A stretch of 64,000 nt of DNA from Syntrophales bacterium (GTDB lineage: Bacteria > Desulfobacterota > Syntrophia > Syntrophales > UBA4778). The DNA lies in NCBI GenBank assembly GCA_041946925.1, contig JBHGBI010000009.1:719-64718 (forward strand). The letters are read 5' to 3'. Position numbers and translations under genes: made by a program. A model generated the notes under the pieces. It made no database searches. It had not been told where the DNA came from and saw only the letters and a list, made by a program, of their open reading frames with translations. Positions 8,726-29,162 of the stretch are shown here, in pieces. Positions within the stretch are counted from its first letter, which is position 1. Each line of letters opens with the position of its first letter.

Positions 8726-8743
8726 GATCGCCCTGGAACTGAA

Positions 8744-10210
8744 TTATGATTGCGTTGCTACTACGATCGCCAGACCCGGGTTGAATCGTCGCGACAGGTC
8801 CTGCTCCGCCATCTTCTGAAATTCCTGTATTTTTCCTGCAAAATTGTAATGCTGAAGGAGTTCGTGGATGGAAGCAGTGTACATGGGCCACAGATTTTTC
8901 GACGACTCATCGAGTTTCTTTTTCAGGTCTGAAATGAAGTCCTGAGCATCGGAAAATATGACTGCCTGGCACTGGTGCGGTCCGGCGCCCTCCTTTACCC
9001 CCCTTGACGTGTTCGAAATAGTCTTCTCGGCCGCCTCGACGTAATTTCTTGCCATGCTGTCCATGTCGGCTATCATCCGAATTGCCAGGGCCTTCGCCAT
9101 GAGGTCGGACAATGAGGATAAAAGAGTGCTCTCCTGCCCTGTCAGTACCGCAACTTTGATGATCGGGTGAACTTCTATAGGCAGGGAGGCCATGAAAGCG
9201 GCATCCTCATCAGACAGGAGTGTCCTATCTTTCATGCTCTTCACCACTCGGGTAAGCCGGTCATTTACATACTTGACGAGGTTGGCTTTTTCGTCCGGCT
9301 GCTTAACACATTTTTCCTCCGCTGTTCCCCCCACCGGCCTGACATAAACATTGCCCTTCAGGAAATCTTCCATCGACATGGTGTTATTCTCCGGGCAGGG
9401 CCGCATTCTTCCAATAACAAGGCTGCCATCCGCCTCACTTATGAGCGCATCCCCATATTTGCCCGCGAGCATGTTTATGAAAGCTACGGACGATATCCCC
9501 ATCTTGTTGCTGAGGTTCGTCATCATGGAACCCGGCCGGAAAACGTCCTTGAGGGCGTCCGGACACCCTTCGGTCATTTTAGCCGGTGTCGCATCGGAAG
9601 AGGGTTTTCCTCCGGAGGCGCTGATGAGGCCCGAACTGGCGGCATACAGGTCCTTGATGCCCGATTTGGTCAGAAACTCGTTTTGGGCGTCTCCGAGATC
9701 TTTTTTCAGTTTTTCATTCGTCAACAGCGGCGTCGCCGCGTAAGCTACCAAAGCCTTCCCGGCCTGACATTCATCAAGCTGAAGACTATTAAGGGCGTTC
9801 ACCATTCCCTCCAGGGATTTGAGGGTCTCAGATCCCTCCGGCCAGAGGGCCTTGAGCGCGATATCGAAAGCGAAAGCGGGCGCGACCTGCATGATCCTCT
9901 GCAGCTTGGTCACCAGGTAATCGAAATTCAGGAAGCTCAGTCCCCCCAGAAAAATGTCGATGCCGCCGCAGCCGCCTTTGAGTCTCGGCCTTTCAATGGT
10001 AGTCAAATAATCCGATTGATTCTGCCAGCGGGCGCTGAATCCTCCAGCGGTGATGTAGCCGCGGTCCCTCCCCTTCTCGTATCCGGGCGCTGTGCTCTGG
10101 CGCTGGTCGATCCAGTCGTCCACCCAGCCCGCATATATGGCAACCGGCAAAACCGATGCCAGGACGATAATCAAGACCAGGATGATCAAGCGGTGCTTCC
10201 TGCTTTTCAT
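8744..10210 (-). CDS. traH: Conjugal transfer pilus assembly protein TraH
   Basis: RGYITAGGFSARW, PRLKGGCGGIDIFLGGLSFLN, LNSLQLDECQ. Confidence 0.92.
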   Translation of the reverse strand: MKSRKHRLIILVLIIVLASVLPVAIYAGWVDDWIDQRQSTAPGYEKGRDRGYITAGGFSARWQNQSDYLTTIERPRLKGGCGGIDIFLGGLSFLNFDYLVTKLQRIMQVAPAFAFDIALKALWPEGSETLKSLEGMVNALNSLQLDECQAGKALVAYAATPLLTNEKLKKDLGDAQNEFLTKSGIKDLYAASSGLISASGGKPSSDATPAKMTEGCPDALKDVFRPGSMMTNLSNKMGISSVAFINMLAGKYGDALISEADGSLVIGRMRPCPENNTMSMEDFLKGNVYVRPVGGTAEEKCVKQPDEKANLVKYVNDRLTRVVKSMKDRTLLSDEDAAFMASLPIEVHPIIKVAVLTGQESTLLSSLSDLMAKALAIRMIADMDSMARNYVEAAEKTISNTSRGVKEGAGPHQCQAVIFSDAQDFISDLKKKLDESSKNLWPMYTASIHELLQHYNFAGKIQEFQKMAEQDLSRRFNPGLAIVVATQS

Positions 10211-10246
10211 GTTATTACCTCCCTTTTTCAGACAATCTTCCCGGCG

Positions 10247-11134
10247 TCACCACCGCGGGAGCGCCTTAACGTCCAGGGGTCCTCCCCTCTGGTAATCATA
10301 CACGTTGAAATCCTCGGGCGTGGTCTCCTCTTTCAGGTACCTTATGCCCCGGTACAGGTTGGTCTCGATCTCGCTGACCGAGGCCACGCCCTGGGAAACC
10401 AAGAGATGGCGGTCATCATCCTTGCGGACGAGAAAGATCGCGGGGGTGGTATGGATATCGAGAAATTCCGCCAGACCTGCGTTTTCCCTTATGTTGATTT
10501 TCTTGACCTGCCAGTCGTACTTTTCCACGAAGAACCGCAGTATCTTTTCCTGTTCCAGGCAGAACTCGCATCCCGGCTGGAAGAAATAGAGAAGAGCAAA
10601 ATCCTCTTTCTCACTCGAGATCTTTTCCTTGACCTCCTTCATCTGGGTTCGGATAAGTGCGCCTCCCCCCGGGACCGAGTTCGGGTAGAAATTGGCGATA
10701 TTGAGACCGGGGTTTTTCTGCAAAACTTCGGCTGCAACGGCCGCGAACCGCAGGGCCCTGCGGCGGGAAATATCCTGGACGAGCAGGTATTCCTTCACAC
10801 TCTCCTCGGTCGACTCCATCAATGCCTTGTTGAGAAATTCCGTCTGAAGTTCCTTGAAGTCGTCCGGATGCATCCTCATCAGCTCTTCCGGTCGGTAATC
10901 ACTGATCCTTGGCATTTTCCTCGCCTTCTGCGCAGGATCCTCTTCGCCCCCTTGCGGCGCCTTTTCGGGCTCCTTCTGGTACCACCACCATCCCTTCCTC
11001 GAAGAGTCGTTGTACTGCGGCGCGCTGCCGGACGCGGCGGGGGAATCCTCCCCGGTCGCATATACAGCCGGAGACAGGAGAAGAAGGCAGACAAAAAAAA
11101 CTAGCCGCCTAAAAAAGAGCGTGAACTTTTGCAT
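10247..11134 (-). CDS. traF: Conjugal transfer protein TraF (thioredoxin-like)
   Basis: GWWWYQKEP, LLYFFQPGCEFC (CxxC), TTPAIFLV; start re-called at ATG 11134 with GGAGA RBS. Confidence 0.9.
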   Translation of the reverse strand: MQKFTLFFRRLVFFVCLLLLSPAVYATGEDSPAASGSAPQYNDSSRKGWWWYQKEPEKAPQGGEEDPAQKARKMPRISDYRPEELMRMHPDDFKELQTEFLNKALMESTEESVKEYLLVQDISRRRALRFAAVAAEVLQKNPGLNIANFYPNSVPGGGALIRTQMKEVKEKISSEKEDFALLYFFQPGCEFCLEQEKILRFFVEKYDWQVKKINIRENAGLAEFLDIHTTPAIFLVRKDDDRHLLVSQGVASVSEIETNLYRGIRYLKEETTPEDFNVYDYQRGGPLDVKALPRW

Positions 11135-11648
11135 GGATATCTCCGACACTGACAAACCCGAAATACCTGGAATCGCAGCTGTCGTTGTGGTCGCCCGTGA
11201 CAAAAACATATCCCGCCGGCACCTTGCCGTTATATTCGAACTGCTCCAGGGGATCGCCGGAAGAGCTCCGTTCTCTGGCCGTTCCGATGAAACGGCCGTT
11301 GCAGAAATAGCTTCTGCCGTCCTGCCTGAGGTCCTGTCCCTCGAGACAGGAGACCCGCTTTATGACAAGAGGGACGTCTTCAACGGGGCCGAGCTTTTTT
11401 CTGAAGAGTTCTCTCAGGGTCTGGTTCCTCTCGAGCACCCGGCTCATGCTGAACATCACGTAGTCACCGTTCTCCACGCCGGCCGAGGGATTTCGATCGG
11501 TGATCAGGAAAACCCGTTTCTCGAGCGAAGGCGTCAGCGTCACGGCAAACCTGGACGGAATCATGGCGCCCGCGGCGAGCAGAGCAACCATGAAGATAAC
11601 GACATTGAGGCTGATTTTTTTCGCCAAAGGCTCATGGTCACGGTTCAA
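11109..11648 (-). CDS. trhF: S26 family signal peptidase (pilin-processing TrhF type)
   Basis: TLTPSL (Ser), IKRVSCLEG (Lys), GDHNDSCDSRYFG. Confidence 0.88.
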   Translation of the reverse strand: MNRDHEPLAKKISLNVVIFMVALLAAGAMIPSRFAVTLTPSLEKRVFLITDRNPSAGVENGDYVMFSMSRVLERNQTLRELFRKKLGPVEDVPLVIKRVSCLEGQDLRQDGRSYFCNGRFIGTARERSSSGDPLEQFEYNGKVPAGYVFVTGDHNDSCDSRYFGFVSVGDIHAKVHALF

Positions 11649-12027
11649 TCAGCTTCACCCCTTTAAGGACCGCATCTGCCCGCAGGACGATATTGTTGTC
11701 GCCGAGCGAGTTGAGCTTATTCTCGAATTTATCCATGCTGGCCTTGAACTGTTCCTCTGTAATCTTTCCGTTCAGAAACAACACTTTCTGTGCGGAAACA
11801 TACCCGATGACGTCCATGGCGACGATTTTCGGCGCAAAACAGCAGTGATAGGTAAAGACGGCCGCCGCAGACACGACAAGGCTCACGGCAAGGGCTATAA
11901 GAACTGTGCCGGCCCGGCCACGGGGCCTCTCTTTCACGGCCCCGGTTTGGGGGGCGACTTCCCGGATAGCTTCGGTTTCTTCCGCCTTCCGGGGCGCCTG
12001 ATCCTCTTTTAATTCCTCGTTGTTCAT
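11638..12027 (-). CDS. TrbI F-type-like single-pass membrane protein
   Basis: One N-terminal TM, KIVAMDV motif, helical body, NIVLRADAVL end; position next to trhF. Confidence 0.6.
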   Translation of the reverse strand: MNNEELKEDQAPRKAEETEAIREVAPQTGAVKERPRGRAGTVLIALAVSLVVSAAAVFTYHCCFAPKIVAMDVIGYVSAQKVLFLNGKITEEQFKASMDKFENKLNSLGDNNIVLRADAVLKGVKLIEP

Positions 12028-12120
12028 TATTTGCTCTCCCTTTCAGACCATTTGGCCTTCCTAATACAATATACGTCGGGACATATCATTGCGGGCCTAT
12101 GTTGCTGAAAATATTGTGTT

Positions 12121-12188
12121 AAAAAAGAGGGCGGGACGAAAATAGAGGCGCTCCAACCACCTTGAAAAAGCGCTCCGCCCGTCCCGCC
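12121..12188 (-). terminator. Extended hairpin plus U-tract inside the tra cluster (after trbC)
   Basis: Perfect 9-bp stem GGCGGGACG/CGTCCCGCC with an inner GAGCGCT-type helix, then TCTTTTTT on the minus strand. Confidence 0.6.
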
Positions 12189-12209
12189 GCCCCAAGTTGC
12201 CCTCAATTC

Positions 12210-13250
12210 CTATTGAGAATGCCCGATTTTTTTCAGCAGCCGCTCCAGAAACCCGCTTTTAGCCTCCCTGTTCAGGCTCTCAAGGGCATATTCGACCGAG
12301 ACGTCACCGGAGACGGACACGAAGTCGTCTGCCTTTGCATTGTATTTCGTGCCTTCCCCCATCATCGGGTCGCGGATGGTCAGCCCTCTGGCATATACGA
12401 AAGTCGGGACCTCCCCGATTTTATAACTTCGGAAAAGAAGAGGATCGATCTGGACGTTTACCCTGTACATTTCGCACTGCGTCGACTCGTGGCCGCACGT
12501 CTGGTCTCTTTTCATTATTCCGGTTATGAAATCAATGGTAGGCATCATGTGCGTCATGCCCCCGACAAACCCCCTGAGCACTACCGTGATCCCTGGATCT
12601 CCGAGCTTGTCGAGAGAAGCCATGTAGTTTCTCAGGGTGCTTTCAGGGACCGAGGATGAGATGAAGACGTACACCCTTTCGGATCCCGGCTCCCCCGATG
12701 CAGGCTGGAACCCCCCGGGGGCCGTGGCATTCGGGTAGTAATCTTTCAGCACTTCAGGAAAAACACCGGAAAGCTGCCTTTCCCTTTCTGCATCGATCCT
12801 TTCCTGGAATTCGTTGGACCTGCGGTAATCCGCCATGGTTTGGGCTCTCTGCTGCGCTTCGGCCCGGTAAGGATTATCAGGGACCGCAATCTTTTTCGAA
12901 TAAGACTCGGCGGAGCGCCGGGCCCTGTCAACCGCGGCCATATCAAACTCCCTCATCGGCGTTTGCCAGCCGTTGCCGTCGGCGCCCACGACCGTATTGA
13001 CCCAGGGCCTGCCGTCCACATAAACCTGGACCCGTTCCGTGTCGTCCGGAACATCGACGGCGATGTCCGATATGCCCTGGGCGCAATGTTTTTCGGACGA
13101 TTTCACGTATACGCGGTTCCCCTCAACCCTATCGAGTCGGCAACACTGGTTGGGCACTTTCACCTGGACCTTCAAGGCATAAACATGGGGGACGAACAGC
13201 GCCGTCAGAATCATGGAAAACAAGAAAATTGTACGGAACAGATAAACCAT
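12210..13250 (-). CDS. trbC: Type-F pilin assembly protein TrbC with N-terminal extension
   Basis: VYVFISSSVPESTLRNY, VVLRGFVGG, VQIDPLLFRSYKIGEVPTFVY, SVSGDVSVEYALE; start re-called at ATG 13250. Confidence 0.88.
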   Translation of the reverse strand: MVYLFRTIFLFSMILTALFVPHVYALKVQVKVPNQCCRLDRVEGNRVYVKSSEKHCAQGISDIAVDVPDDTERVQVYVDGRPWVNTVVGADGNGWQTPMREFDMAAVDRARRSAESYSKKIAVPDNPYRAEAQQRAQTMADYRRSNEFQERIDAERERQLSGVFPEVLKDYYPNATAPGGFQPASGEPGSERVYVFISSSVPESTLRNYMASLDKLGDPGITVVLRGFVGGMTHMMPTIDFITGIMKRDQTCGHESTQCEMYRVNVQIDPLLFRSYKIGEVPTFVYARGLTIRDPMMGEGTKYNAKADDFVSVSGDVSVEYALESLNREAKSGFLERLLKKIGHSQ

Positions 13251-13261
13251 AGGTATTTCCT

Positions 13262-14380
13262 TTACCAATCCAGTTCGGGACCGGCCGTGCCGCTCGTATC
13301 CCACAGGGCGCTGTTGCCGGCGCTGCTTCCCGAGGCGTTCCCGCCGCTGCCGGATCCCCCCAGGCCGATCGCGAAGGCGCAGCACGATCTCCTCCGGAAC
13401 TGCTGCCAAGCGAAGTTGTCGCCGTAAAACGGGGGATTCTTTCCCGTTGCCCACATCATGTCACTGCGGCCGAAAGGATGGCACCACACGTCCCGGACAG
13501 GTTTTGCGACATGATGCCTGAAATTGTGCTTGATCCAGATGGGGGTGTGCACGCAGCCGCAGACATTGACGGCCGTGTCGCAGGCCAGGCCCTGCCTCGC
13601 CATAAGAAACTGGGTGCGTGCCGCGATGCCCTCGTGCGCCATGAGCATGACGGAGTTATTTTTAAAACCGGTAAGTGGGTAGACATTGCCGGCTGAGGCC
13701 GTGCACCAGAAAAGAGGGCTTATAGAGAATCCAGCATTCGACGAGACCGAGTCCGCGATGCACGCCATCCCGGCGACAGGGTTGGCGAAGAGGAGCGCCT
13801 CCGGCGCAATGACCATGGAGAGCAGCGAGTTCGTCCACCTCGGGTCCACCTCGGTAATATAGGCGAGGTCAAACCCGCTGTGCTCGACGCATGCCACGTC
13901 CGTGGCGATTTCCATTATCGCCCACCAGGGCGCGATCATGTAATGCGAATGCGCAAAAGTCTCGCCCGCCTGGTCGTGCTTTTTGGCGGTGGCCTTGGTC
14001 GCCCCGGACTGGAAACCGGTTGGATTGCCCATACCTATCCCGACCGACGGAAAGCAGTAAGGAGTTGAAACGGTTTCGACGATACGAGCCGGCTCCCAGA
14101 AGCTTATCGGGATCCCGATCTTGAAAAAGGGCGGGTTTATCGCCGGGCAGACGCATATCGGCATCTGGGCCGCGTCGGGATAGTTGTTTTCATACGGCCC
14201 CGGGAAGACCTGGATCCCCGCTATACTGAACGGGAATATACATTGCCAGCAGACATCCGTGACCGGGTTCATCGGCACGCCTTGCGGGCACACGGCAAGA
14301 GCATTATCCGCGGTTCCGGCGCAGAGGAGAGCCAGGACAACCAGGCAAATAGCCCGTCTTTTCCGGTTACCTGACTGCAT
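13262..14380 (-). CDS. traU: Conjugal transfer protein TraU
   Basis: NPVTDVCWQCIFP, ISFWEPARIVE, DLAYITEVDPRW, RRSCCAF; start re-called at ATG 14380 (GGAGG RBS). Confidence 0.93.
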   Translation of the reverse strand: MQSGNRKRRAICLVVLALLCAGTADNALAVCPQGVPMNPVTDVCWQCIFPFSIAGIQVFPGPYENNYPDAAQMPICVCPAINPPFFKIGIPISFWEPARIVETVSTPYCFPSVGIGMGNPTGFQSGATKATAKKHDQAGETFAHSHYMIAPWWAIMEIATDVACVEHSGFDLAYITEVDPRWTNSLLSMVIAPEALLFANPVAGMACIADSVSSNAGFSISPLFWCTASAGNVYPLTGFKNNSVMLMAHEGIAARTQFLMARQGLACDTAVNVCGCVHTPIWIKHNFRHHVAKPVRDVWCHPFGRSDMMWATGKNPPFYGDNFAWQQFRRRSCCAFAIGLGGSGSGGNASGSSAGNSALWDTSGTAGPELDW

Positions 14381-14978
14381 ATTCCGAAACCTCCATGAAC
14401 AGGCCTTTCTGGACAATTACGCATGGAGCCGCCTCGATCTGGAGCCGCGAGGCCGTCTCCTGGTCCAGGTAATAGACCGGCCGGCCAAGCTCCTTTGCGA
14501 GTCCGTAATAAGATCCGTCGGACAGGAGCAGCATCGTGCGGATATCGCCGAGAAGACCCGAATCTTTCAGCCACTTGACCTGGTTACTGTCGCTTTCGTC
14601 GATAACGACCAGTATATCCGGGAAGAAGATGTACTCGAGAGGATTGAAGGTGTATCCCCTGGGGTAAAGGATCCCGCCCTTGCCGTCCGGTATATCGTAG
14701 GGAAGCGTGTACGAAACATCCACATTCCGAACCCTGTCCTTCAGGGCGGCCGGAAGCTTTTTGATGTTCCGGGGACGATAGCCGAGGATCTTCTTCCTCC
14801 ATTTTTCTTTGTCGAAGACCCTGTCCCAATCCACGGATTTGGCCCTGTGCTCAAGCTCGGCGAGCGCATCCGGCTCCGCTATCCTGTAAACCGTCCCGAA
14901 ATTTCCGAGCCTGTGCCCCGCCGCGAAGACGGCGGGCGTGAAAAGGGCAGCGATGAACAGCACCAATACCTTCTTCAT
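14367..14978 (-). CDS. traW: Conjugal transfer pilus assembly protein TraW
   Basis: FGTVYRIAEPDAL, DGKGGILYPRGYTFNPL, RPVYYLDQ..RLQIEAAPCVI. Confidence 0.92.
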   Translation of the reverse strand: MKKVLVLFIAALFTPAVFAAGHRLGNFGTVYRIAEPDALAELEHRAKSVDWDRVFDKEKWRKKILGYRPRNIKKLPAALKDRVRNVDVSYTLPYDIPDGKGGILYPRGYTFNPLEYIFFPDILVVIDESDSNQVKWLKDSGLLGDIRTMLLLSDGSYYGLAKELGRPVYYLDQETASRLQIEAAPCVIVQKGLFMEVSEYAVR

Positions 14979-14985
14979 GGCCCCG

Positions 14986-17900
14986 TTACCTGGTGTTTTG
15001 GTAAAAATTCTGAATGTTCCCGCCCATGTCGGTTATGATGGACTGCTGCGCCCTGGTGACGATATCGCCGAAGTACTCGCTCAGATCAATCTGGCTGAAG
15101 TCGAGCATCTGGAATTCTTCGGCCGTAAAGCCGCGGCAATCCGGGCTTTCCGCGCTGCCGAAACCAGCGGGGAATTTCTTGAGCTGCCCCCTCCCCTGCT
15201 CCTGGATGATGCGACCCAGCTTTGAGTTGAAACAGCAATAAACGTTCGCTTTCTGCACGCAGCCGATAAGGGGCCACTTTTCCTTGCAGTAATCGCCGAG
15301 GTAGTGGCAGACGCCCGCGGCGACCAGCCCCATGGTTTTTTGATCCTGCTCGCCGCATACCTCCTTGATGGGACCGAACGCACCCTCGCTCGTATCGCAG
15401 CAGTTGAAGAAATTGGTACTCCGTCCCCCCGTCCTGCACTCGCTTGCCTGACCGTTGAAAATAAGGACCTGGCCCTCGCACTCTCCGGTGCTCTCGTTGA
15501 TTTTCCCGTCATTGTGGTAACTCGAAAGGTCAATCTGGTTCTGCTGTGTCGGCATTGAAGTCATCATAAAGCACTGAATATCGGTACACTGTTTTATCCC
15601 GGAGACCGGGTTGGTAATGCACGCATATTGCTCGCCATAGGGGCAGTTCTGGACTCCTCCCGTGCATTTGTCCTGGTCGGGATCGTAATTGCCCTCGAAG
15701 CACAGAGGCGCCGCGGCGCACTGCTTTGTGGTCTGGTCGTAAGTGTACGTGTTCGGGCAGTCGTATGCGGCTTCGGATACGCACAGATCGAGCGACGAAG
15801 AGTACGTGCCCGGCTCCGGGCAGGGGGGAGTCGCCTCGCAACGGTCATCCGCCGGCTTGAACGTATAGGATGCGGGGCACAGGTCCTGCCCGGGCACTGA
15901 GCACATGGCGAGGACCGTGTCGTAAGCGCCCTCGTCGCAGACCGGCTCCGGAACCATCCGGCAGAAACCGGAAGCATTATCCCAGCCGTACCCGGCCGGG
16001 CAGTCATTGATGTATGCGAGCTCGCACCTGTCCCTGTCGCCTACGAAGGTTCCGCCCGAATCGCACGCCGGGTCTTTCTCGCAGATGTCAAGGGCGGCGT
16101 TGTAGACAAAACCCGGGGGGCATTTGGAGGTATCTATGTGTATCTCGCAAAGGTTTGTCCCGGCATTCAATATGGCGCCCGAAGGGCACGTCACGACCTG
16201 CTTGCAATAATCGATAATCGCATCATAAATGAAATCCGCGATCGCGCAGCCATGGACCGGCTCGATTTCGCATTTATCCCTGTCCGCGCTATAGGCGAAG
16301 CCGAACGCGCAGAGCGGGCCTTTCTCGCAGATGTCAAGAGCGGCGTTGTAAACGAATCCGGAACCAGGGCATTTTGATGTATCCAGTATGACTTCGCACA
16401 GGTCGGTGACAGGATTGAGAGACGCTCCTGACGGGCAGGAGACGGCCTGGGTGCAGTAGTCTATAGCGGCCTCGTATGCGAATCCCGGAAGATCGCAACT
16501 ATGGAAGGAGGCTTTTTCGCATTTGTCGCGCGCCGCCGAATAACTGAAACCCGCGCTGCAGTCAGGATCCTTCTCACAGATATCCCTTGCCGCGTTATAC
16601 GTGAATCCCCCGGGCGGACACATTGCGCTGACAAACAGAATTTCGCAGAGATCCGCGGCGCCGTTCAGTGATCCGCCCTCCGGGCACGTGACCGCCTGAA
16701 CGCAGAAGTCAAGAGCCGCGCTGTACACGAAGCCGGCCAGAGCGCACGTGTGCGTCGGGTTCTCCACGCAGAGATCCCTGCCGGCGTCATAGGTGTAATG
16801 TGCGGGACAGTTGTTTATGCGGGCGGCGTGGCATTGGTCATTGGCGCCGTTGTATGTGCCGGGCGCCGGGCAGGCAGGCGCCGCCTCGCATCTGTTGCGG
16901 CCCGCAACATAGGAGTATTCGGCGGCGTTGCAGACCGGGAAAGAAGATGCCTGGCACATGTCGCGGGCGCCGCTCAGCGTCCCCCCCGAAGGGCAGCTGA
17001 CGGCCGCCTGGCATACGCCGTTGTCTGCATCCCATGCATACCCTGCAGGACAGTTCGGCGTCCCGGAAGCGACGCAGTAATCATAGCCGCCGTTGAGCGA
17101 TCCTCCCGCGGGGCAACCCGGCGCGTAATCGCAGGTCGAGCCGGAGAGCTGCCAGGGGGCGCCCCAGCAGTAATAGGTGGGTCCCGTACAGGCGACGGTC
17201 CGGCTGCAGTTGGCGGCGCACGTGCCGGAGTCGCCATACTCAGAGCCGGTCAACGAGCAGGTCCAGTAGTAAACATATGTATTATTATAATAAATTCTAT
17301 AATGAGCGGTGGCGCATCCCTCGATCCAATCGATATGGTCCCAGTACCCCCAAAGACCCTCTCCCCCGGCAGGGCAAAAGGTCATTATGGGGCAAGTCAC
17401 AGGAGTGTAGCTCGTATTCCAACAGAAGTTACCTGGCCCACTCCCGCAGCCCGAATCCCCTGTCGCATACTGATAGCAATACGCCGTGGAAGAAACACGC
17501 GAATGCTGGCTGCAAGTTCCGGACTGTACACAGTTTGCGGCGCATGTGCCGTAATCACCGTAATTTCCCCCGAGCGGGCATGAATAGTAATATGATGCCG
17601 AAGCAGTGCAGGCGTCCCAGCTTCCGTTATAGCTCCCGCCCGACGGACACGATGGAGACGCGATGCACAGGGACCACGGCGCATACCAGTTGTAGCCCGC
17701 GGGGCAACCCCAGCTCGATGGCGAGGTTTCGCAGCGGTCGCGGGCGGCATTGTAAGACCCCGGCGCCGGACACGGCGGGGCAATTTCGCAAGTCCCCCTC
17801 GCCGGCACGTAAACATATCCGCCCGGGCAGCCGTTTGTGTACCCAACGTAGCAGACGTCATTAGCCGTATCGAGTGTCCCGCCGGAGCTGCAAGTTGAAG

Positions 17901-20760
17901 CGGCGTAGCAGAGGGACTGCCCCGCGTCATAGCTGTAACCGTCCGCACACGTGTACCAGGCCGCGCCCTCGCACAGGTGGGTACCCGGAACGAACACTCC
18001 GCCGGCATCGCACGAATGCCCCGCCGTTTCCTCGCAGGTATCCGCGGCGACGGAATAGCTGCTTCCTGCGGGGCACAAAGGCGCTTGTTCGCATTTATCC
18101 GTAAGCGGGTTGTATGTATAGGCGCCCGGGCACAATGTAGAGGCCTCGACGCGGCACTTGTCTATAGCGGCGTCGAAAGTTCCGGCAATACAGATCGGGT
18201 CGAGCTGACACTGGTGGACAATGGCGTTGAAATCGCCCCCGTCGGGGCAGGAATGGGTGGGCGGTTCCACACAGGTATCGTTTACGGGCGAATAGTCGCT
18301 GCCCGCAGGGCAGGAAGGGGTTATTTCGCATCGGTCGGTGGGACCGTTGAATGTGAAGCCTGCGAGACAAAGGGTGTATGCCTCTATCCTGCATTTATCG
18401 ATTGCGCCGTCGAAGACGCCGAGGTCGCATCCGGGATCCATCTGGCATTTATGGGGCGCGGGGTTGAAAGCGCCGCCCCGAAGGCAGGAGTGAGTGGGGT
18501 CGGACAGGCACATCGCGATGCCCGCGGAATAGCTGCTTCCCGCGGGGCACGGCGGCTCGATCTGGCAATTGTCGTCGGCCCCGTTCCATGCAAAGCCTGC
18601 GGGACACAATGTTGCCGCCTCGATCCTGCACTTGTCTATGGTCCCGTCAAATGCGCCAAGAGAGCAGACCGGGGAAGCCTGACAGATGAGCCTTACGGGA
18701 TCATAGCTGTAGCCGGCGGCTGAACAGACAGGGGTCGATACTGTCTGGCACGCGAGGGCCCCGCTGTTGTAGATCCCGCCTTCCGGGCATTCCACTCTTT
18801 TCAGGCACGCATCGTAGCCGGCATAATAAACGAATCCCGAGGGGCATGAATCTGTGTCTATCGACTTGACGCATATATGCAGGTCCGTGTCCATCTGGCC
18901 GCCGGCGGGGCATTGGGTGTTCACGATGCAGGTATCGAGGACGCTGTCGTAATTATAGCCGGCAGGGCAGGTTATAACGGGCAGGACCTCGCATACGTCC
19001 CTTACAGGGTTAAGGGTGCCGCCGAACCCGCCCGACGAGCCCGCAGCGCAGATATCGACTGCCCTGTGGTAATTGGCGATACAGCCCATGAGAGGCGTGC
19101 AGGGCAGGTTGCTCGAACATTTGCCGGCCGAGCAGGGATATTCTCCAAGGGGACACACGGCCTGGATACCGTTGAAATATATCGGCGCGCCCGGGTCGTT
19201 TCGGGAGTTGCAGACGGCGCCGTCGCCGGAGCAGCTGTCGCCGGCGTAATGGTAAAGGTAAAGGGCGTTGCCCACGGCGGTCCCGCTGACGATATCGCCA
19301 TGGTTGTTATACGTCGCCACCTGGAGGGTCTCGCCGCCCGAAGCGGCTCCTCCGGAGATCACAATGCGGGTGTCGCCCGCGCACCCCTGCAGGCGGGCGC
19401 AGCCGGAGTTGTCGCAAAAATAGCCCCAGAGCTCCGTCCCCCCATTCGCGGGGACTATGTGGGTAAGCATCTGGTGCGTGCCGTCGCACGGATTGGTCTG
19501 TATCGCCCCCGAAAATGTGAAAGACGTCCCGGAAAAGCAGGTGGACCCGAGCGTAGCTCCCGTCCTGCTTTTAAAAACGAGACAGTTGCCCGATGAAACA
19601 ACCGTGACAAGGGCTGATGCGCCGCTTCCCGCGGCGGTAAAGGAGCCCGTCCCCGCAGTCGCGACGGATTCATTCGAGCAATCGGCGCTCTGCCGGCACG
19701 CCGCATTGCAATCAGTCGCCAGGGCGTAGGTGGTTGCGGTATTCGGGCAGCGGTATGCCGTGGCGACCTGGTTCGTTTCGCATCTCGCCCGGGCTTCCAC
19801 GTACACGCCTCCCGGAGGACAGTCGGTCCCGTCGTTCGGGCAGTATGCCTCGGACTGCCCGCTCAAGCAGTCCTTGGCCCCGAGAGGACAGTACTCCTGC
19901 CCGTCAACATTCGTGCAGTTCACGATCTCACCCGAATTTATATCGACGAAACCGTCCCCGTTCAGGTCCCTGGAGCAGACCCGCTGTCCCGGCTGAATCT
20001 GCCCGCCCATGCTTTCGTCAAAGCAGGAATTCGGCGAGCACCGGTAGGCGTTCCCCACGTTCACGCAGCTGAATTGCCTTCCCAGGGGACACGAGTACTC
20101 GACCCCCTGCATCCTGATCTCGCCGGCGGCAAAGGCCGAGCACCCCGCCGCCCCACATGCGGCTCCCGTGAAGGCGATCGTGTCATTGGCCGCGGAGACC
20201 TCGAGAAAACCATCGGAAGAGCCCGCTGATCCTGAAAAAGCAGCCCCGCTCACCGTGATAGACCCCACGAGAGTCTCGGAACAGTTCAGGAGATCCTTGC
20301 AGCCGTAAATGTCGATGCGGTTCCCGCTGCCGATGAACCGGCTTATCTTTTCCGCCTGTGCCGCGCCCGTCACGGTCCCCAGGGAGAAGGAGATTCTTCC
20401 CGCCGTGTCCTCGCCGCAGGAGGTCGCCGTGCACTTCCAGCCCGAAAAGGAGACCGTGTTCGTGGCCGAGGAGGCTGTAACCCGTGTGAATCCGCTTTTC
20501 CCCAGGATGGAACCGGGGGGAAGTGTCGCGCTCCCATTAACAACATAGACCCCGGCGTTGCAGTCGATCGCATCGAGAGGGCAAAGGGGCGGAGTGGTGT
20601 TCGAGCATTCAAAGTGTTCCGTGATTTGATCTATAACCCCGTCGTGGTTGAGGTCCTTGACGCATACTGCTGATTGTGCCGGCAACAGGAAAAACGCGGG
20701 TAGAACCAGGGCGATTGAGGCTCTGAGCGCCAGCCCTAGTATTTTTGACCCGTTGTGCAT
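14986..20760 (-). CDS. traN: Giant Cys-repeat TraN adhesin (carries the TraN C-terminal domain)
   Basis: Signal peptide; C-terminal YCCFNSKLGRIIQEQGRGQL...PDCRGFTAEEFQMLDFSQIDLSEY (TraN hallmark); about 48 CPxGxxYN...C modules. Confidence 0.92.
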   Translation of the reverse strand: MHNGSKILGLALRASIALVLPAFFLLPAQSAVCVKDLNHDGVIDQITEHFECSNTTPPLCPLDAIDCNAGVYVVNGSATLPPGSILGKSGFTRVTASSATNTVSFSGWKCTATSCGEDTAGRISFSLGTVTGAAQAEKISRFIGSGNRIDIYGCKDLLNCSETLVGSITVSGAAFSGSAGSSDGFLEVSAANDTIAFTGAACGAAGCSAFAAGEIRMQGVEYSCPLGRQFSCVNVGNAYRCSPNSCFDESMGGQIQPGQRVCSRDLNGDGFVDINSGEIVNCTNVDGQEYCPLGAKDCLSGQSEAYCPNDGTDCPPGGVYVEARARCETNQVATAYRCPNTATTYALATDCNAACRQSADCSNESVATAGTGSFTAAGSGASALVTVVSSGNCLVFKSRTGATLGSTCFSGTSFTFSGAIQTNPCDGTHQMLTHIVPANGGTELWGYFCDNSGCARLQGCAGDTRIVISGGAASGGETLQVATYNNHGDIVSGTAVGNALYLYHYAGDSCSGDGAVCNSRNDPGAPIYFNGIQAVCPLGEYPCSAGKCSSNLPCTPLMGCIANYHRAVDICAAGSSGGFGGTLNPVRDVCEVLPVITCPAGYNYDSVLDTCIVNTQCPAGGQMDTDLHICVKSIDTDSCPSGFVYYAGYDACLKRVECPEGGIYNSGALACQTVSTPVCSAAGYSYDPVRLICQASPVCSLGAFDGTIDKCRIEAATLCPAGFAWNGADDNCQIEPPCPAGSSYSAGIAMCLSDPTHSCLRGGAFNPAPHKCQMDPGCDLGVFDGAIDKCRIEAYTLCLAGFTFNGPTDRCEITPSCPAGSDYSPVNDTCVEPPTHSCPDGGDFNAIVHQCQLDPICIAGTFDAAIDKCRVEASTLCPGAYTYNPLTDKCEQAPLCPAGSSYSVAADTCEETAGHSCDAGGVFVPGTHLCEGAAWYTCADGYSYDAGQSLCYAASTCSSGGTLDTANDVCYVGYTNGCPGGYVYVPARGTCEIAPPCPAPGSYNAARDRCETSPSSWGCPAGYNWYAPWSLCIASPSCPSGGSYNGSWDACTASASYYYSCPLGGNYGDYGTCAANCVQSGTCSQHSRVSSTAYCYQYATGDSGCGSGPGNFCWNTSYTPVTCPIMTFCPAGGEGLWGYWDHIDWIEGCATAHYRIYYNNTYVYYWTCSLTGSEYGDSGTCAANCSRTVACTGPTYYCWGAPWQLSGSTCDYAPGCPAGGSLNGGYDYCVASGTPNCPAGYAWDADNGVCQAAVSCPSGGTLSGARDMCQASSFPVCNAAEYSYVAGRNRCEAAPACPAPGTYNGANDQCHAARINNCPAHYTYDAGRDLCVENPTHTCALAGFVYSAALDFCVQAVTCPEGGSLNGAADLCEILFVSAMCPPGGFTYNAARDICEKDPDCSAGFSYSAARDKCEKASFHSCDLPGFAYEAAIDYCTQAVSCPSGASLNPVTDLCEVILDTSKCPGSGFVYNAALDICEKGPLCAFGFAYSADRDKCEIEPVHGCAIADFIYDAIIDYCKQVVTCPSGAILNAGTNLCEIHIDTSKCPPGFVYNAALDICEKDPACDSGGTFVGDRDRCELAYINDCPAGYGWDNASGFCRMVPEPVCDEGAYDTVLAMCSVPGQDLCPASYTFKPADDRCEATPPCPEPGTYSSSLDLCVSEAAYDCPNTYTYDQTTKQCAAAPLCFEGNYDPDQDKCTGGVQNCPYGEQYACITNPVSGIKQCTDIQCFMMTSMPTQQNQIDLSSYHNDGKINESTGECEGQVLIFNGQASECRTGGRSTNFFNCCDTSEGAFGPIKEVCGEQDQKTMGLVAAGVCHYLGDYCKEKWPLIGCVQKANVYCCFNSKLGRIIQEQGRGQLKKFPAGFGSAESPDCRGFTAEEFQMLDFSQIDLSEYFGDIVTRAQQSIITDMGGNIQNFYQNTR

Positions 20761-22715
20761 ATAATATCCTTTCCCGCGTCATCTACAACGGACATGACTG
20801 TTGCCGCCTCGGCAAAGTCGTTCATGCACTGGCAGTCTTTCAGTATTTCTTCCCCCGGCCCGGCAGGACAGACGCCGTTTTCGCACCGGTGATAAAGAAA
20901 CTCGTGGGATACGTTATCTTTCTGGTAGTTGGTCCTCACCCCTGAGACTCCCGCCTGGGTATCGAGTTTTCTCCTTCGCGTGCGGCAGGCGTCCTCGCAG
21001 GGCTTCGGGGCCATTGCGCTTTTCATGGACAGATCCAGGCTCATATCCATGGTGGACCAGGCACCCGTATCCGATTTGGTGATATCTCTGAAACGATACT
21101 GCCCCGTTGAAGGGCTCCCGGCGATCGAGCCCACTACGGCGTCCGCTCTCGCCTTCGCATCAGTAAAATCGTATCGTTTGGCTGATTTACAGTAATACGT
21201 CCGCTCCTTCACCCACCAGTCCCGGCAGACATTGTGGTCGAAATTGCCCGTGAAAGTCTTGCAGGTGGCGACGGGCAGCACTCTGGTGGGGGAATAATTT
21301 CGGTAGGTATAGACGTCGTCGACACGCTCCTCCCGGATCTTACAGGACGCATCGGCTTCCATCGCGGAGCATCCGTCGGCGACGCTTTCCTGGACCTCGT
21401 CTTTTTTATCGGGCGGTTTGGAGCAGGCCTCGCCCGCGATCGGCGTTGCGCCTTCGTAGTGGCTGCAGTCTATCGAGCCTGCCGGGGTCGTGTAATAGAG
21501 CCCCTGGACAAATCTCGCATCTCTGCTCGGGCAGGGCGGAAATGTTACGGCCTGATACTCCGCCGTGTATATAATGTGTTGCACGCCGCCGCAGGTGTAA
21601 ATGATTCGCGCGTTCTTAACGATGCCGCCCTGGGGATCGCCGCACAAACCGTTTCCTATCCCGTACGTGTCCCCGCCCTCAGGCGAGATAGGCAATCCGA
21701 AATAGCAATAACCGCCTCCACCGCCGGTGGAAAACGTTCTGGGCGTATAATCATTGGCCGGTATGATGCAGAGTTGCGTGCCGCTGTCGTAGCTGCCGTC
21801 GTCAGGGCAGGTGAAGCTCTTCAGAATATTTATGGAGCGGGTGATCCTGCACGATCGCAAGTCTCCCGCGGTTTCGCTCATCGCGGGGGAGTTGATCATG
21901 AGGCTGTAGAGGCTTCCGGGATCCCCTGACTGGGATACAACCTCGGATTCAGCGGCGCCGAGAAGAGCCGCATCGCTCTGGGGATCGTAAAATTTAGACG
22001 GCGATGTCCCGGAAGGAGCCGTGCCGCTCCTGGCGCACTTTTTTACGTCCTGCCCGTAATAGGTGATGAGGGTCGAGTCGATCTTCGCGTCCGCTACGGC
22101 GTAACGCCTGGTCCTCGCTTGGATCGCGCCGACGATTCCGCCTCCCAGGTCACGAAGCACGACATCGAGATTCTGCCAGACGAGCCCGCTTCCGCAGGCG
22201 GTATTTATGCAGTAGCAGCCACCAAGCGCCGTAACCCCGACCTCATTTAGAAGCAGCTGACCGGAATCACTCAATCCCCATTTATAATAGCGGCAGTTAT
22301 CCCATGTCCCGGTGTCGCAGGTGATGACGCCGTTTCCACATATGCCGGAAACAGGAAAAGGAAGCTGGGTGACAAAATCCACGTTGCCGTCGAGGTCTAT
22401 ATCCTGGCTGATGCGGACGAGCTGGAGATCACCGCTCCCCCCGGGCTGGACGAATACTTCCAGGAACCTGGAAGACGAGGGGCACGAAAGCTGACCCTTG
22501 AAGGAACTCGCCCCGTCGAGCGTCTTCATAAGGGTGTTTTCCGAGGTGACCGGATCCGATATGTTGCTTTTGAACGAGTCCGTCGAACCGAATTTTTCCA
22601 CCCCCAGGTTGCCCATATCGCTTCCCGCGGACTTCGCATGGTCAATTTCGCTTTGCGCCGGCAGGCAAACGGGCAGAAGCACAAAGAGAAAAACAACAAG
22701 TCCTGTGATTTTCAT
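20736..22715 (-). CDS. TraN N-terminal-like exported Cys-rich protein (first half of a split TraN)
   Basis: Own signal peptide, SGICGNGVITC, GGCYCINTACG, CEDACRTRR, CQCMNDFAEAATVM; lies between traC and traN. Confidence 0.7.
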   Translation of the reverse strand: MKITGLVVFLFVLLPVCLPAQSEIDHAKSAGSDMGNLGVEKFGSTDSFKSNISDPVTSENTLMKTLDGASSFKGQLSCPSSSRFLEVFVQPGGSGDLQLVRISQDIDLDGNVDFVTQLPFPVSGICGNGVITCDTGTWDNCRYYKWGLSDSGQLLLNEVGVTALGGCYCINTACGSGLVWQNLDVVLRDLGGGIVGAIQARTRRYAVADAKIDSTLITYYGQDVKKCARSGTAPSGTSPSKFYDPQSDAALLGAAESEVVSQSGDPGSLYSLMINSPAMSETAGDLRSCRITRSINILKSFTCPDDGSYDSGTQLCIIPANDYTPRTFSTGGGGGYCYFGLPISPEGGDTYGIGNGLCGDPQGGIVKNARIIYTCGGVQHIIYTAEYQAVTFPPCPSRDARFVQGLYYTTPAGSIDCSHYEGATPIAGEACSKPPDKKDEVQESVADGCSAMEADASCKIREERVDDVYTYRNYSPTRVLPVATCKTFTGNFDHNVCRDWWVKERTYYCKSAKRYDFTDAKARADAVVGSIAGSPSTGQYRFRDITKSDTGAWSTMDMSLDLSMKSAMAPKPCEDACRTRRRKLDTQAGVSGVRTNYQKDNVSHEFLYHRCENGVCPAGPGEEILKDCQCMNDFAEAATVMSVVDDAGKDIICTTGQKY

Positions 22716-22719
22716 ATAG

Positions 22720-25311
22720 TCATCCCGGATTTGCGCCGCCGCTCCTGTATTTGCGCATCATTTCCAGGATCGCGCCCTTGTAGTCCAGGCCCTGCTCTTC
22801 GATTATCCTGTCGATTTCGGAAACTTCGCCCGGGTCGGACGTATAGAGGTAATAAGAGAACGGATCAACGATGAGCCTGGCCGGTCCTTGCCCGTAGGGA
22901 GTATCGAGAAATATCTCCGAGTACTTCGGAATAGCCTTGCGTATGGACTTGAGAAGTTCCATCCCGAAGTTCCCGTAATCTATAAGGTTCTCGCTCTTCG
23001 CCCTGTCAAAATCGGACGACTCCAGGTATATCTTGAAAGCGGAGTTGGCCATGATGACACTCCCCACGCTCCCGAACTGTTTCAGATCGTTTATGCTCTG
23101 GGTTATGACAGTGAAGCTCCCGTTGTACTTTCTCGCCCGGCGATAGCCTTCTTCGATGACGTCCTTCTGCGCGCTTCCTTCCTTGATGAATTGCCAGCTC
23201 TCGTCGAAGACCACGAGTTTCATGCGGCTGCGGTCGGAGAGGTACAGGTTTTTCGTGACAGCATCGATTACGAGAAGCATGACCACCTTGAAGAGCTCGG
23301 GCTGCGGTTTCAGAGACTCAAGCTCGAGGACGACGAACTCGTCATCGGCGATATTGAAATTGGATCTGCGGTTGAACCACTTTCCATATGAGTGGCCCGA
23401 CGTGAATTCGGTCAGGTTGAAAGCAAGCGTCTGCGCAGTGTCCCTGAAGAAACTGCTCGTGTTTCCGTTCCCGAATTCTCCGGTGGCGTACTCCGGGAAA
23501 CTCGCGAGATACCTGTACACGGTATCTACAGTTGCATCCGTACCTTCCTGGCTCCACGCCCAGCGCACCGCCGCCTTGATGAGGGACATCGCAGTCTCCG
23601 CTATGTCGGCGGGGATGATGTCCGTCGATGAGAAGCACATCGTGACAATGACCCCGACAACGGCCCGGAGCTGAAAATCCACGTCTTCCATGTCGACGAA
23701 CGTGAAGGGATTGAGGCAGATGTTGGATCTGGCGTGGAAATCGAGGTATTTTGCGTTGAAAAGCCCCGACATTTTCCGATATGAGCCGCCGATATCGATG
23801 ACCCTGATCATTGCATTGGCCGCGTAGTAGTTGTAAATGATGTTATTGATCGTAAAACTCTTTCCGGAGCCGGAAGCGGCGGCGATAAAGGCATTGTAAT
23901 TACCCACTCCCTTGCCGAAAAAATCGATGCCGATCGGCTGACCCTTCCGGCCCACGAAGAGAAGCTGAGGCGGACCGCCGCCGGCGAAATCCGCCTGGAC
24001 GGGCAAGGTCAGCGCCACGGCATCGCCGGGAGCCGTGAAGTCGCGCTCGAGATTATCGATGTTTTCACCGTCCGCAAAGTAAAGGCCGAAAGGCATCGAC
24101 GCAATGAAAAGCGGGGGCAGGATCCCCTTGTCCTCCTGCATGACATAACCCTTCGCCTCCCACATCCTCTTGATCCTTGCTATGCTCTCGGCGGCGAGCT
24201 TCTCGTCTTCGCTCCATACCCACATGGTCGGGATGATCCTTACAAAGGGAACCCCCTTTTCGATGTCGTCGACCGCTCTCATGTACTCGTCTTTCTTGCG
24301 CATGAGCGAAGGGGCGAATGAACCGGCGTACTGCTGCTGAAGAACGAGATTGCATTTCATGTGGAGCTTCATCTTGAGGTTCTGGAAGACTATGTTGAGA
24401 CTGTAGAGAAAAGGCGTCAGGATCTGGTTAGCATCGGATGTTACCCCCCAGACTCCGCCGAAGAGCTCATTGGTCTGGAACGCGTCCACTTCTTTGGGAT
24501 AGTTCTTCACGGTCGTGCAACGGAAATAACGCTTCCCCATCTTTATGTGCGACATGGTTTTGGTAATCACGGTATCCGAGAAGATGACCTGCCGGTTGAT
24601 AGGAATGCCTTCGTTATAATGACCGTTGTTGCCTGACGGCCTGTCGTTGAACACCTTCCGCATCCAGTCCACGAGCCCTTCAGGGATCAGGGCCTCCGGT
24701 TGCAGCCGCGCGCCTTTCAGAATTTCATTCACGTTCGAATAGATGTCGAGGAGGTTGATATCGGAGCCGTTGTCATTTTTCGGGGGCATCTTGAGGCAGA
24801 CGAAGAGTCGAAAATCCCTGATAGGCATCCTCTGCAGGATGTCGAGACCGTTCACTCCGTCGAGGAGGAATCGCGAAAAGCGCTCCGCGGCCTCTTTCAC
24901 GACGGGCAGGTTTCTCGTCTTGCTGTTTTTGTACTGCTCTATACAATCCTCTATGTACTTGTCCGCATAAAGGATGAACTGCATGATGGAGCCGTTCGGG
25001 ATCCCGATCCGGAAGAGCCCTTCGAGTGTCTTTATGGTCTGTTCGCCGGCAAACGCAAGGGGGGAACACTCCCAGATAAATCCGACGGTATCATCTATAT
25101 TGTGATAGGCCCTGGTGTCAGGATCGTATGCGATCCAGGGAAGGCTCGGGGAGAGTTTGTCCCGCCTTGTCATTTCATTGATCTCCAGGCGGGAAATATC
25201 CCGGTCTTTTCCAAAAAGGAGGTTTAAAAGACTTTTCAGCATTCCAGAATTTTCCGCAGCCGGTTTGGACCCCTCTGTCCCGGCCGATACGGTATTCGTT
25301 GTTTCCGTCAT
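22720..25311 (-). CDS. traC: VirB4-family ATPase TraC
   Basis: Walker A AASGSGKS, VIDIGGSY, LNPF, Walker B VVFDESWQF, YRRARKYNGSFTVITQS. Confidence 0.96.
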   Translation of the reverse strand: MTETTNTVSAGTEGSKPAAENSGMLKSLLNLLFGKDRDISRLEINEMTRRDKLSPSLPWIAYDPDTRAYHNIDDTVGFIWECSPLAFAGEQTIKTLEGLFRIGIPNGSIMQFILYADKYIEDCIEQYKNSKTRNLPVVKEAAERFSRFLLDGVNGLDILQRMPIRDFRLFVCLKMPPKNDNGSDINLLDIYSNVNEILKGARLQPEALIPEGLVDWMRKVFNDRPSGNNGHYNEGIPINRQVIFSDTVITKTMSHIKMGKRYFRCTTVKNYPKEVDAFQTNELFGGVWGVTSDANQILTPFLYSLNIVFQNLKMKLHMKCNLVLQQQYAGSFAPSLMRKKDEYMRAVDDIEKGVPFVRIIPTMWVWSEDEKLAAESIARIKRMWEAKGYVMQEDKGILPPLFIASMPFGLYFADGENIDNLERDFTAPGDAVALTLPVQADFAGGGPPQLLFVGRKGQPIGIDFFGKGVGNYNAFIAAASGSGKSFTINNIIYNYYAANAMIRVIDIGGSYRKMSGLFNAKYLDFHARSNICLNPFTFVDMEDVDFQLRAVVGVIVTMCFSSTDIIPADIAETAMSLIKAAVRWAWSQEGTDATVDTVYRYLASFPEYATGEFGNGNTSSFFRDTAQTLAFNLTEFTSGHSYGKWFNRRSNFNIADDEFVVLELESLKPQPELFKVVMLLVIDAVTKNLYLSDRSRMKLVVFDESWQFIKEGSAQKDVIEEGYRRARKYNGSFTVITQSINDLKQFGSVGSVIMANSAFKIYLESSDFDRAKSENLIDYGNFGMELLKSIRKAIPKYSEIFLDTPYGQGPARLIVDPFSYYLYTSDPGEVSEIDRIIEEQGLDYKGAILEMMRKYRSGGANPG

Positions 25312-25314
25312 TAT

Positions 25315-25758
25315 TTATTCCTCCTGCTCGACGAGATAATCCCCGATTACCCACCTGGGTTCATCGGCCATGATGAAAACGTAACGCATCATGTATAGCT
25401 CGTTTAAGTCACCCTTGTACGGAAGCATGAGTACCCGCATGACCCTGGGGGGAGCCAGGAGCGGGGTATTGGGCTTTTTCAGGAGACCCGCAAGTTTCCT
25501 GTTTACTTCCCTCTGGTACATTGTCTCGGAATTTCCCGTATCGGCGGAAGAGCCGTTGCGGCTGAGGGATGACTCTTTCTTTTTGTCCATGGATTGTCTG
25601 TAGGCGCTTTCCACCTGGACGCACTGACCCCTGTCGTAACTGGGACAGGCAAATTCGTCGCCGTACGGATTCATCGCCTTTCCGATCGATCCGCATCCGT
25701 AAATACCGAAAAGGCAGATCGCCAGGGACGCACATACTGTTAAAGGGATCCCTCTCAT
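25315..25758 (-). CDS. traV: Outer-membrane core lipoprotein TraV
   Basis: Lipobox-like IYGC, EFACPSYDRGQC, PRVMRVLMLPY..ELYM..YVF. Confidence 0.9.
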   Translation of the reverse strand: MRGIPLTVCASLAICLFGIYGCGSIGKAMNPYGDEFACPSYDRGQCVQVESAYRQSMDKKKESSLSRNGSSADTGNSETMYQREVNRKLAGLLKKPNTPLLAPPRVMRVLMLPYKGDLNELYMMRYVFIMADEPRWVIGDYLVEQEE

Positions 25759-28297: not shown

Positions 28298-28872
28298 CTT
28301 CCTGTGCTCCCGTTCCCATCGCCTGTTTCAGAAACGGAAAGTATGGAGAACTTGCCGTTGTTGATCTTGTATTCTATGAGATAGGTCTTGGCGAGATCCT
28401 CCACCTTGCGGTCGTCTATATAAAGCCTGCGCACACCAAAGACTTCGACCCGCTTTTTTACGGTATCGATAGAGACACGATCTATATAAAAAGACGAATT
28501 CGAACGTGTCTCGATGACATTTTCCGCCAGATTGTAGAAGGTGGTCTTGCCGGCCGCATAAGCCTCGGGAGCGAAAAGCGTGAGGAGTTCCTCGAATTGT
28601 CGTTTCACAGTGGCCGGTGTATAGTTAAATGCCAGCCCTGACACATAGCGGGAAAACGCCATAACATAGTTTTTGTCGAGATAGTCCCCCCGGATCTCCG
28701 CCTTCACATCAAGACCAGGAGGCACAATGATCACTCGCTGGTAGTTAAGGGACCGCTGGATCATCACAGTATTGAAGAGCACGACTATACCGATAACGGT
28801 CACCACGAATCTCAGAAGCCTGTTTTCAGCCTGGACATCGGCTTTTTTGTTGAGAAAGATTTTGAAATTCAT
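28294..28872 (-). CDS. traE: TraE pilus assembly protein
   Basis: ENRLLRF, RVIIVPPGL, LAFNYTPATVKRQF; start re-called at ATG 28872. Confidence 0.9.
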   Translation of the reverse strand: MNFKIFLNKKADVQAENRLLRFVVTVIGIVVLFNTVMIQRSLNYQRVIIVPPGLDVKAEIRGDYLDKNYVMAFSRYVSGLAFNYTPATVKRQFEELLTLFAPEAYAAGKTTFYNLAENVIETRSNSSFYIDRVSIDTVKKRVEVFGVRRLYIDDRKVEDLAKTYLIEYKINNGKFSILSVSETGDGNGSTGR

Positions 28873-28882
28873 TTGCTCGCCT

Positions 28883-29152: not shown

Positions 29153-29162
29153 ACGCCTCCAT

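Follow-up and report, generated by a model that had tools for sequence, protein, structure and literature searches.

Matched four-module triplications in the two arms of a very long TraN from a Syntrophales bacterium, with a probable fold-back stalk built of in-register rungs

We have found that the TraN protein of a Syntrophales bacterium contains two long arms of disulfide-hairpin modules, that each arm carries three copies of a four-module super-repeat, and that module numbers in the two arms change together among relatives of the protein. The gene lies in a 64,000-nucleotide (nt) stretch of DNA (contig JBHGBI010000009.1, positions 719 to 64,718), hereafter called the window, and its 1,924-amino acid (aa) product, which served as the query in all comparisons, is about three times as large as TraN of the F plasmid. 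We consider it probable that the protein forms a stalk of two arms that folds back on itself, with the arms paired rung by rung in register, and that the stalk grew by matched block duplications. The query belongs to a known protein family.

Modules were delimited by cutting TraN at cysteine pairs. A hairpin module has the form C-x11-13-C followed by a linker of 5–9 aa, about 20 aa in total, and the linkers alternate between short (5 aa) and long (7–9 aa) forms, so that the structural period is two modules. The N-arm contains 24 such modules (N1–N24) and the C-arm 25 (C1–C25). Between them is a non-repetitive tip that has a copy of the motif C-x-L-x-G-x2-3-YGD-x-GTCAANC on either side, the copies starting at aa 1061 and 1168. 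The original prediction, made on the DNA sequence, placed about three copies of an approximately 80-aa unit in the N-arm and about three copies of a different, approximately 83-aa unit in the C-arm, within positions 15990–18700. This interval corresponds to aa 687–1591 of TraN and lies inside a single open reading frame (ORF). Three N units of 79 aa each occupy aa 699–777, 778–856 and 857–935, with pairwise identities of 61, 52 and 47%. The three C units, of 83, 83 and 82 aa, occupy aa 1339–1421, 1422–1504 and 1505–1586, with pairwise identities of 58, 59 and 52%; the outer C-unit pair is 51% identical in a six-sequence alignment. Identity between N and C units is 32–39%, which is the general module background. 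Both arrays are thus confirmed as first described: the motifs quoted for the units are all present in TraN, the two unit types differ in sequence yet agree in copy number and are similar in length, and the super-repeats are more than 1 kb apart, with 1,210 nt between them.

The predicted four-module periodicity is also evident when the protein is compared with itself. Mean module similarity at lag 4 was 0.33 in the N-arm (0.21 when shuffled; z = 4.9) and 0.36 in the C-arm (0.20 when shuffled; z = 6.6), and 5,000 random reorderings of the modules never reached the observed value. High lag-4 similarity is limited to N6–N17 and C8–C19. The last module of the third unit resembles its counterparts weakly (0.11 in the N-arm, 0.36 in the C-arm) and is the most diverged module in each arm, while C7, just ahead of the C units, is a partial, weak fourth copy of the d-type module (0.38). 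The closest unit pairs, N0-N1 (61%) and C1-C2 (59%), face each other. Mirrored unit trees in the two arms were considered and set aside; the ordering is consistent, but the differences within the C-arm are too small to count.

The single-copy state is seen in relatives of the query. A whole-protein search returned 42 long TraN relatives of 1,058–2,648 aa, including the annotated TraN proteins of Geobacter argillaceus and Geobacter sp. DSM 9736; a whole-protein scan of the genome-contig collection found no relative. In the closest relatives, P0002, P0003 and P0004, the N unit and the C unit each occur exactly once. When module counts are written as base-side, unit and tip-side modules for the N-arm and as tip-side, unit and base-side modules for the C-arm, the query has 5+12+7 and 7+12+6, P0002 and P0004 have 5+4+7 and 7+4+6, and P0003 has 5+4+5 and 5+4+6. 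By these counts, two matched events took place in the query clade: a gain of eight modules in each arm through unit triplication, and a gain of two modules in each arm next to the tip.

To count modules more widely, the base domain (aa 1660–1924) was chosen as a search query that is blind to arm length. It matched 3,131 library proteins at E ≤ 0.001, and 138 cluster representatives were added to the comparison. Counting with a hidden Markov model (HMM) was replaced by a cysteine-pair rule because HMM hits were patchy in divergent relatives. The rule was fixed before any statistics were calculated: a module was C-x9-16-C, linkers were 3–11 aa, one degenerate module could be bridged, and a protein had to be full length, at least 700 aa long, and have at least 75% of its arrayed modules in its two largest arrays. 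Under this rule, 57 proteins showed a clean two-arm architecture, ranging from 6|10 to 34|33 modules (N|C). Counts in the two arms were closely correlated (Pearson r = 0.93), and the mean absolute difference between arms was 1.35 modules, as against 6.3 with C counts shuffled. Phylogenetically independent contrasts on the base-domain tree gave r = 0.89 (56 contrasts), with the same sign in 31 of the 34 contrasts in which the N-arm changed by at least two modules. Sister pairs illustrate the size of these changes: 18|18 in P0028 and 9|10 in P0154, 18|18 in P0127 and 9|9 in P0074, 18|18 in P0049 and 9|9 in P0057, 18|18 in P0078 and 9|11 in P0125, and 20|21 in P0007 and 7|9 in P0103. The proposal that expansion was coordinated in two separate regions, and that copy number would correlate between arms in homologs, is therefore supported both by the single-copy relatives and by the arm counts.

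Two unrelated tandem triplications could by coincidence share period and copy number, and the query taken by itself does little to oppose this, since one protein is one observation and the chance of equal height is about 1 in 13. The rule is repeated, however, in several lineages, where the periods are 2, 4 and 7 modules, and it appears again in the independent contrasts; we regard coincidence as scarcely credible. Wherever a super-repeat is detectable, its period is equal in both arms (z ~ 3–7). It is four modules in each arm of the query, P0007, P0078, P0127 and P0049, two in P0005 and P0006, and seven in P0008, P0011 and P0156.

The two arms also agree in register. Relative to P0005, with which it is 76% identical, P0006 is longer by 38 aa in the N-arm, at about 8.9 modules from the tip, and by 40 aa in the C-arm, at about 9.6 modules from the tip. 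In the query, the order of linkers from tip to base is SLSLSLLSLSLS... in both arms, with agreement at 21 of 23 positions. In P0003, the slip in the alternation formed by two adjacent long linkers lies two positions closer to the tip, and it does so in both arms. P0008 has the irregular linker order SMSSLSL at identical positions in both arms, with 2 mismatches among 31 positions in register and 8–14 at shifts of 2 or 4. Pooled over 32 proteins, the correlation between facing linkers was 0.94 in register and fell to 0.78 and 0.61 when the arms were shifted by 2 and 4, respectively; the register had been picked for each protein within ±2 positions for the fewest mismatches, a procedure that favors the in-register value. 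Since copying of DNA cannot produce a reversed pattern in the protein, the mirrored linker order points to a structural constraint. In the register in which N(24-k) faces C(k), N6–N17 stand opposite C18–C7, and module partners are constant in all three blocks (A-c, B-b, C-a and D-d). By our reading of the alignment, the A-c pairing also occurs in P0003 (rung 8) and in P0002 (rung 10). Sizes of facing modules were tested for compensation, and no correlation was found. The earlier suggestion that the arms pair in register is thus backed by the mirrored linkers and by the matched insertions that separate P0006 from P0005, and we infer physical contact between the arms from these patterns.

An arrangement of two independent legs, in which the arms are separate rods without contact and have equal length because they span two common end points, would account for equal module counts just as well, and it would suit the mismatches of 1–3 modules that many relatives tolerate. 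It leaves unexplained the insertions and deletions at the same height in both arms, the position-by-position agreement of linker irregularities and the constancy of N and C module partners, and in published models of ordinary TraN the two halves of the protein touch each other (PMC9246713). We consider independent legs unlikely. The co-variation evidence fits equally well with pairing between molecules, in which the N-arm of one TraN would join the C-arm of a second molecule to give a domain-swapped dimer or oligomer. This arrangement is quite improbable given that the monomer model described below has high local confidence, including at the hairpin that joins the arms at the tip, and that ordinary TraN, which formed a complex with OmpK36, was modeled as a monomer that folds back on itself (PMC9246713).

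Structure prediction with AlphaFold2 was carried out on aa 857–1421, using a well-anchored alignment of 33 sequences, and on the full stalk (aa 536–1730). The shorter model had a mean pLDDT (the predicted score on the local distance difference test) of 82.3, and most of both arms scored 84–94. In both models each module is predicted as a two-strand hairpin, to which long linkers add a short third strand in the shorter model; the full-stalk model yielded secondary structure only. At the tip, each copy of the GTCAANC motif (aa 1061–1191 region) is predicted to form a short helix and then one strand of a long beta-hairpin between the copies (about aa 1083–1097 and 1154–1168; strands E227-241 and E298-312 in the numbering of the shorter model). 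The 57-residue loop between these strands (aa 1097–1155) has many Cys, Trp and Tyr residues and low confidence (pLDDT below 50 at model residues 241–299). The hairpin model matched no fold in the PDB at E ≤ 0.001. MAFFT spread an N-arm-only fragment over both arms of the relatives, and an AlphaFold2 test of arm dependence based on the N-arm alone was set aside because the comparison would be unfair.

Several observations weigh against a fold-back stalk with paired arms, or against its exact register. The predicted template modeling score (pTM) is modest, at 0.43 for the aa 857–1421 model and 0.35 for the full-stalk model, and the latter is poor overall (pLDDT 68), with low values at just those places where the extra units are missing from relatives. 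The counting rule set aside 42 of the 99 proteins of at least 700 aa as ‘few’ or ‘messy’. The outliers are three proteins with unequal arms, P0010 (24|13), P0012 (24|18) and P0031 (23|17), and P0007 has three unit copies in one arm and four in the other, with arm-specific linker patterns, although its totals are still 20|21. The register itself is accurate to ±1 module and depends on where the boundary of the tip is drawn. In the query, the offset rests on a single linker irregularity, with 2 mismatches among 23 positions in register and 3–4 at shifts of 2. If the tip is bounded symmetrically, 123 aa separate the end of the N super-repeat from the first tip motif, and 147 aa lie between the second motif and the start of the C super-repeat.

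Other features of the relatives were recorded alongside these comparisons. P0007 (1,279 aa), which has three unit copies in the N-arm and four in the C-arm, contains two tip-like motifs (aa ~134–203 and ~509–568) and may represent either a TraN with two tips or an intermediate caught in an unbalanced state. Still larger relatives, P0008, P0011 and P0156 (2,305–2,648 aa), have 30–34 modules per arm and a seven-module super-repeat at the same positions in both arms. N-arm counts cluster near 9, 17–18, 25 and 32–34, in steps of about eight modules, which could reflect chance or block-wise growth. Genes on three Shewanella plasmid records (NZ_AP026733.1, NZ_CP143634.1 and NZ_CP050314.1) match the query stalk (aa 595–1703) at about 26% identity and are annotated as ‘hypothetical protein’ or ‘Ig-like domain-containing protein’.

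The fold-back stalk that we favor would work as follows. TraN would act as an outer membrane adhesin of the donor cell that stabilizes mating pairs in F-type conjugation. The chain would leave the base through the roughly 24 modules of the N-arm, form a receptor-binding tip, and return through the roughly 25 modules of the C-arm. The arms would run antiparallel and next to each other, paired in register, with each rung of a rod-like stalk made up of one N and one C module; that the C-arm folds back onto the N-arm is suggested by the co-variation of the arms. Because a rung would need both partners, the stalk could lengthen only if the two arms gained equal numbers of modules at equal height. 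In the query, a four-rung block would have been copied twice in each arm, from one copy to three, which would have extended a 17-rung stalk like that of P0002 and P0004 to 25 rungs. At an estimated 1–1.5 nm per module, the stalk would be about 25–40 nm long, and its purpose may be to place the tip at a sufficient distance from the cell for it to reach a receptor through thick surface layers. A stronger form of the proposal holds that each N module type recognizes a specific C type, that growth is possible only by co-duplication of multi-rung blocks more than 1 kb apart, and that stalks of 9–34 rungs are rulers matched to the thickness of the surface layer. We advance this stronger form tentatively, as a possibility that falls somewhat short of even.

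The age of the units was assessed at the nucleotide level. Tandem Repeats Finder (TRF) reported no array in traN. Units are 55–63% identical in nucleotide sequence, with longest common exact words of 8–19 nt, and the same codon was used at identical residues in a fraction of 0.35–0.59, as compared with 0.45–0.47 expected from codon usage. The query units are 47–61% identical to one another and 48–54% identical to the orthologous single unit of P0003. Judged from these sequence comparisons, the unit duplications are old, with saturated synonymous sites, and now appear to constitute a fixed protein architecture. Because no array was detected by TRF and the codon comparison is saturated, a recent or slippage-prone origin of the units was rejected, and present-day change in copy number by slippage or recombination is unlikely. 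The idea that stalk length may be tunable consequently holds in one sense only: arm counts vary among relatives over evolutionary time, but the DNA of the units is too diverged for slippage today.

Tandem-repeat rods that set how far a tip projects, and whose length varies among relatives, are known from periscope proteins (SasG/Aap and Rib-domain proteins) and from the stalks of trimeric autotransporters (YadA and BadA). These rods are single-pass arrays or homotrimers, and their near-identical DNA repeats recombine readily. The query family resembles periscope-type proteins in that repeat number varies among relatives while the base is conserved, and sister pairs differ two-fold. A currently variable locus of this kind, in which frequent changes in copy number by recombination would tune length in the short term, would fit the tandem units in both arms and the wide variation in length among relatives. 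We nevertheless regard it as very unlikely, since periscope-type loci have DNA repeats of high identity, whereas the query has diverged repeats, short shared words, codon sharing at chance level and units that are as distant from the orthologous P0003 unit as they are from one another. The query rod also differs from periscope and trimeric stalks in its proposed fold-back hairpin, in which two distant arrays, both old and diverged, must expand together.

Table 1. Features of traN and its surroundings, with positions in the window
Feature	Position	Strand	Description and basis
traN ORF	14986..20760	minus	1,924 aa; ORF list and translation; stop codon at 14986-14988
N-terminal region, aa 1-597	18970..20760	minus	Signal peptide, two DxNxDG-containing segments, scattered Cys modules; translation and module list
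N-arm, modules N1-N24, aa 598-1073	17542..18969	minus	24 disulfide-hairpin modules; Cys-pair module list, AlphaFold2 hairpins
N-arm super-repeat, modules N6-N17	17956..18666	minus	Three 79-aa four-module units; pairwise identity and lag-4 periodicity
Tip, aa 1074-1197	17170..17541	minus	Non-repetitive centre; module list and AlphaFold2 model
C-arm, modules C1-C25, aa 1198-1699	15664..17169	minus	25 disulfide-hairpin modules; Cys-pair module list, AlphaFold2 hairpins
C-arm super-repeat, modules C8-C19	16003..16746	minus	Three four-module units; pairwise identity and lag-4 periodicity
TraN base domain, aa 1700-1924	14989..15663	minus	Conserved; Pfam and NCBIfam matches
F-type type IV secretion system (T4SS) gene cluster	5576..30278	minus	Pfam and NCBIfam

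The gene and its neighbors are listed in Table 1. The protein begins with a hydrophobic signal peptide (aa 1–31, ending in AQSA in the translation) and contains 165 cysteines. It matches PF06986 (F_T4SS_TraN) in Pfam with 77.4 bits against a cut-off of 23 (E = 1.6e-21), solely over aa 1665–1879. Scores stayed below the NCBIfam equivalog cut-offs for TraN, the best being 98.2 bits against 422 for TIGR02750, with the C-terminal base alone aligned; the NCBIfam models cover enterobacterial forms of 570–930 aa. The cluster comprises traG, traH, traF, trbC, traU, traW, traN, a 659-aa ORF, traC, traB, traK, traE and a DsbC/DsbG-like gene, of which TraC, TraU, TrbC, TraF, TraH and TraG were called by Pfam and TraW, TraB, TraK and TraE by NCBIfam. 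All of these genes are on the same strand, and traN is placed between the traC side and traW/traU. Based on the PF06986 match and the tra neighbors on the same strand, we assign the ORF to traN of an F-type transfer system. Traits of F-type TraN that are present here are the PF06986 match, the F-type operon neighbors and a secreted, cysteine-rich protein (at least 20 Cys; PMC9246713).

Two neighboring genes were also noted. A gene for a DsbC/DsbG-like thiol:disulfide isomerase lies at 29496–30278 (minus strand) within the T4SS cluster (NCBIfam E = 1e-9, below cut-off), and such an enzyme would suit as a helper for a TraN with this number of cysteines. The 659-aa ORF, which is cysteine-rich, fills the gap between traC and traN (20736–22715, minus strand), overlaps the start of traN by 25 nt and has no match in Pfam or NCBIfam.

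In AlphaFold models of ordinary TraN, an extended, beta-rich N-terminal part leads to the tip, the C-terminal part doubles back to make contact with the N-terminal part, and every cysteine is able to pair (PMC9246713). A 2026 survey of plasmid TraN distinguishes short (550–660 aa), medium (880–950 aa), long (1,050–1,070 aa) and V-shaped forms, portrays them as made up of a base plus a tip, and names nine Xanthomonas TraN proteins of 1,882 aa without analysis (PMC13104618). Our literature search found no account of a modular, length-variable two-arm stalk in TraN. The query shares with TraN of F-like, IncA/C and IncH plasmids (F, pKpQIL, RA1 and R27; PMC9246713, PMC13104618) the base domain, operon position, signal peptide and abundance of cysteines. 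The overall topology would also be the same, with an N-terminal part that leads outward from the base to the tip and a C-terminal part that comes back, the fold-back of the query being derived here from its arms, and binding of the tip to a receptor at the recipient outer membrane is the presumed common role. The plasmid proteins, at 550–1,070 aa, consist of a base and a tip, whereas about 1,100 of the 1,924 aa of the query are taken up by 20-aa hairpin modules in matched arms. Closer in architecture are the TraN proteins of Geobacter argillaceus (P0020; 1,527 aa) and Geobacter sp. DSM 9736 (P0021; 1,438 aa), which have the same type of module and matched arms (17|18 and 17|17) and lack the four-module triplication of the query. 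No description of the architecture of very long TraN such as these was found in the literature search.

TraN decides which mating partners are efficient for a conjugative element, and so far the tip alone has been treated as the variable part that determines specificity (PMC9246713, PMC13104618). Our findings indicate a second variable, the length of the stalk, which covers a range of almost four-fold among relatives and in which the arms change together, in blocks and in register. They provide a structural model, open to testing, of TraN proteins in environmental bacteria, a large group that is unstudied and to which Geobacter and its relatives belong, and a clear case of a fold-back repeat protein that would have grown despite the need for two separate mutations at each step. 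Rods of defined length could be built from the hairpin module. If the stronger form of the proposal is true, the TraN family would be a natural example of paired-repeat co-expansion, and the stalk would be a molecular ruler that sets the distance between donor and recipient.

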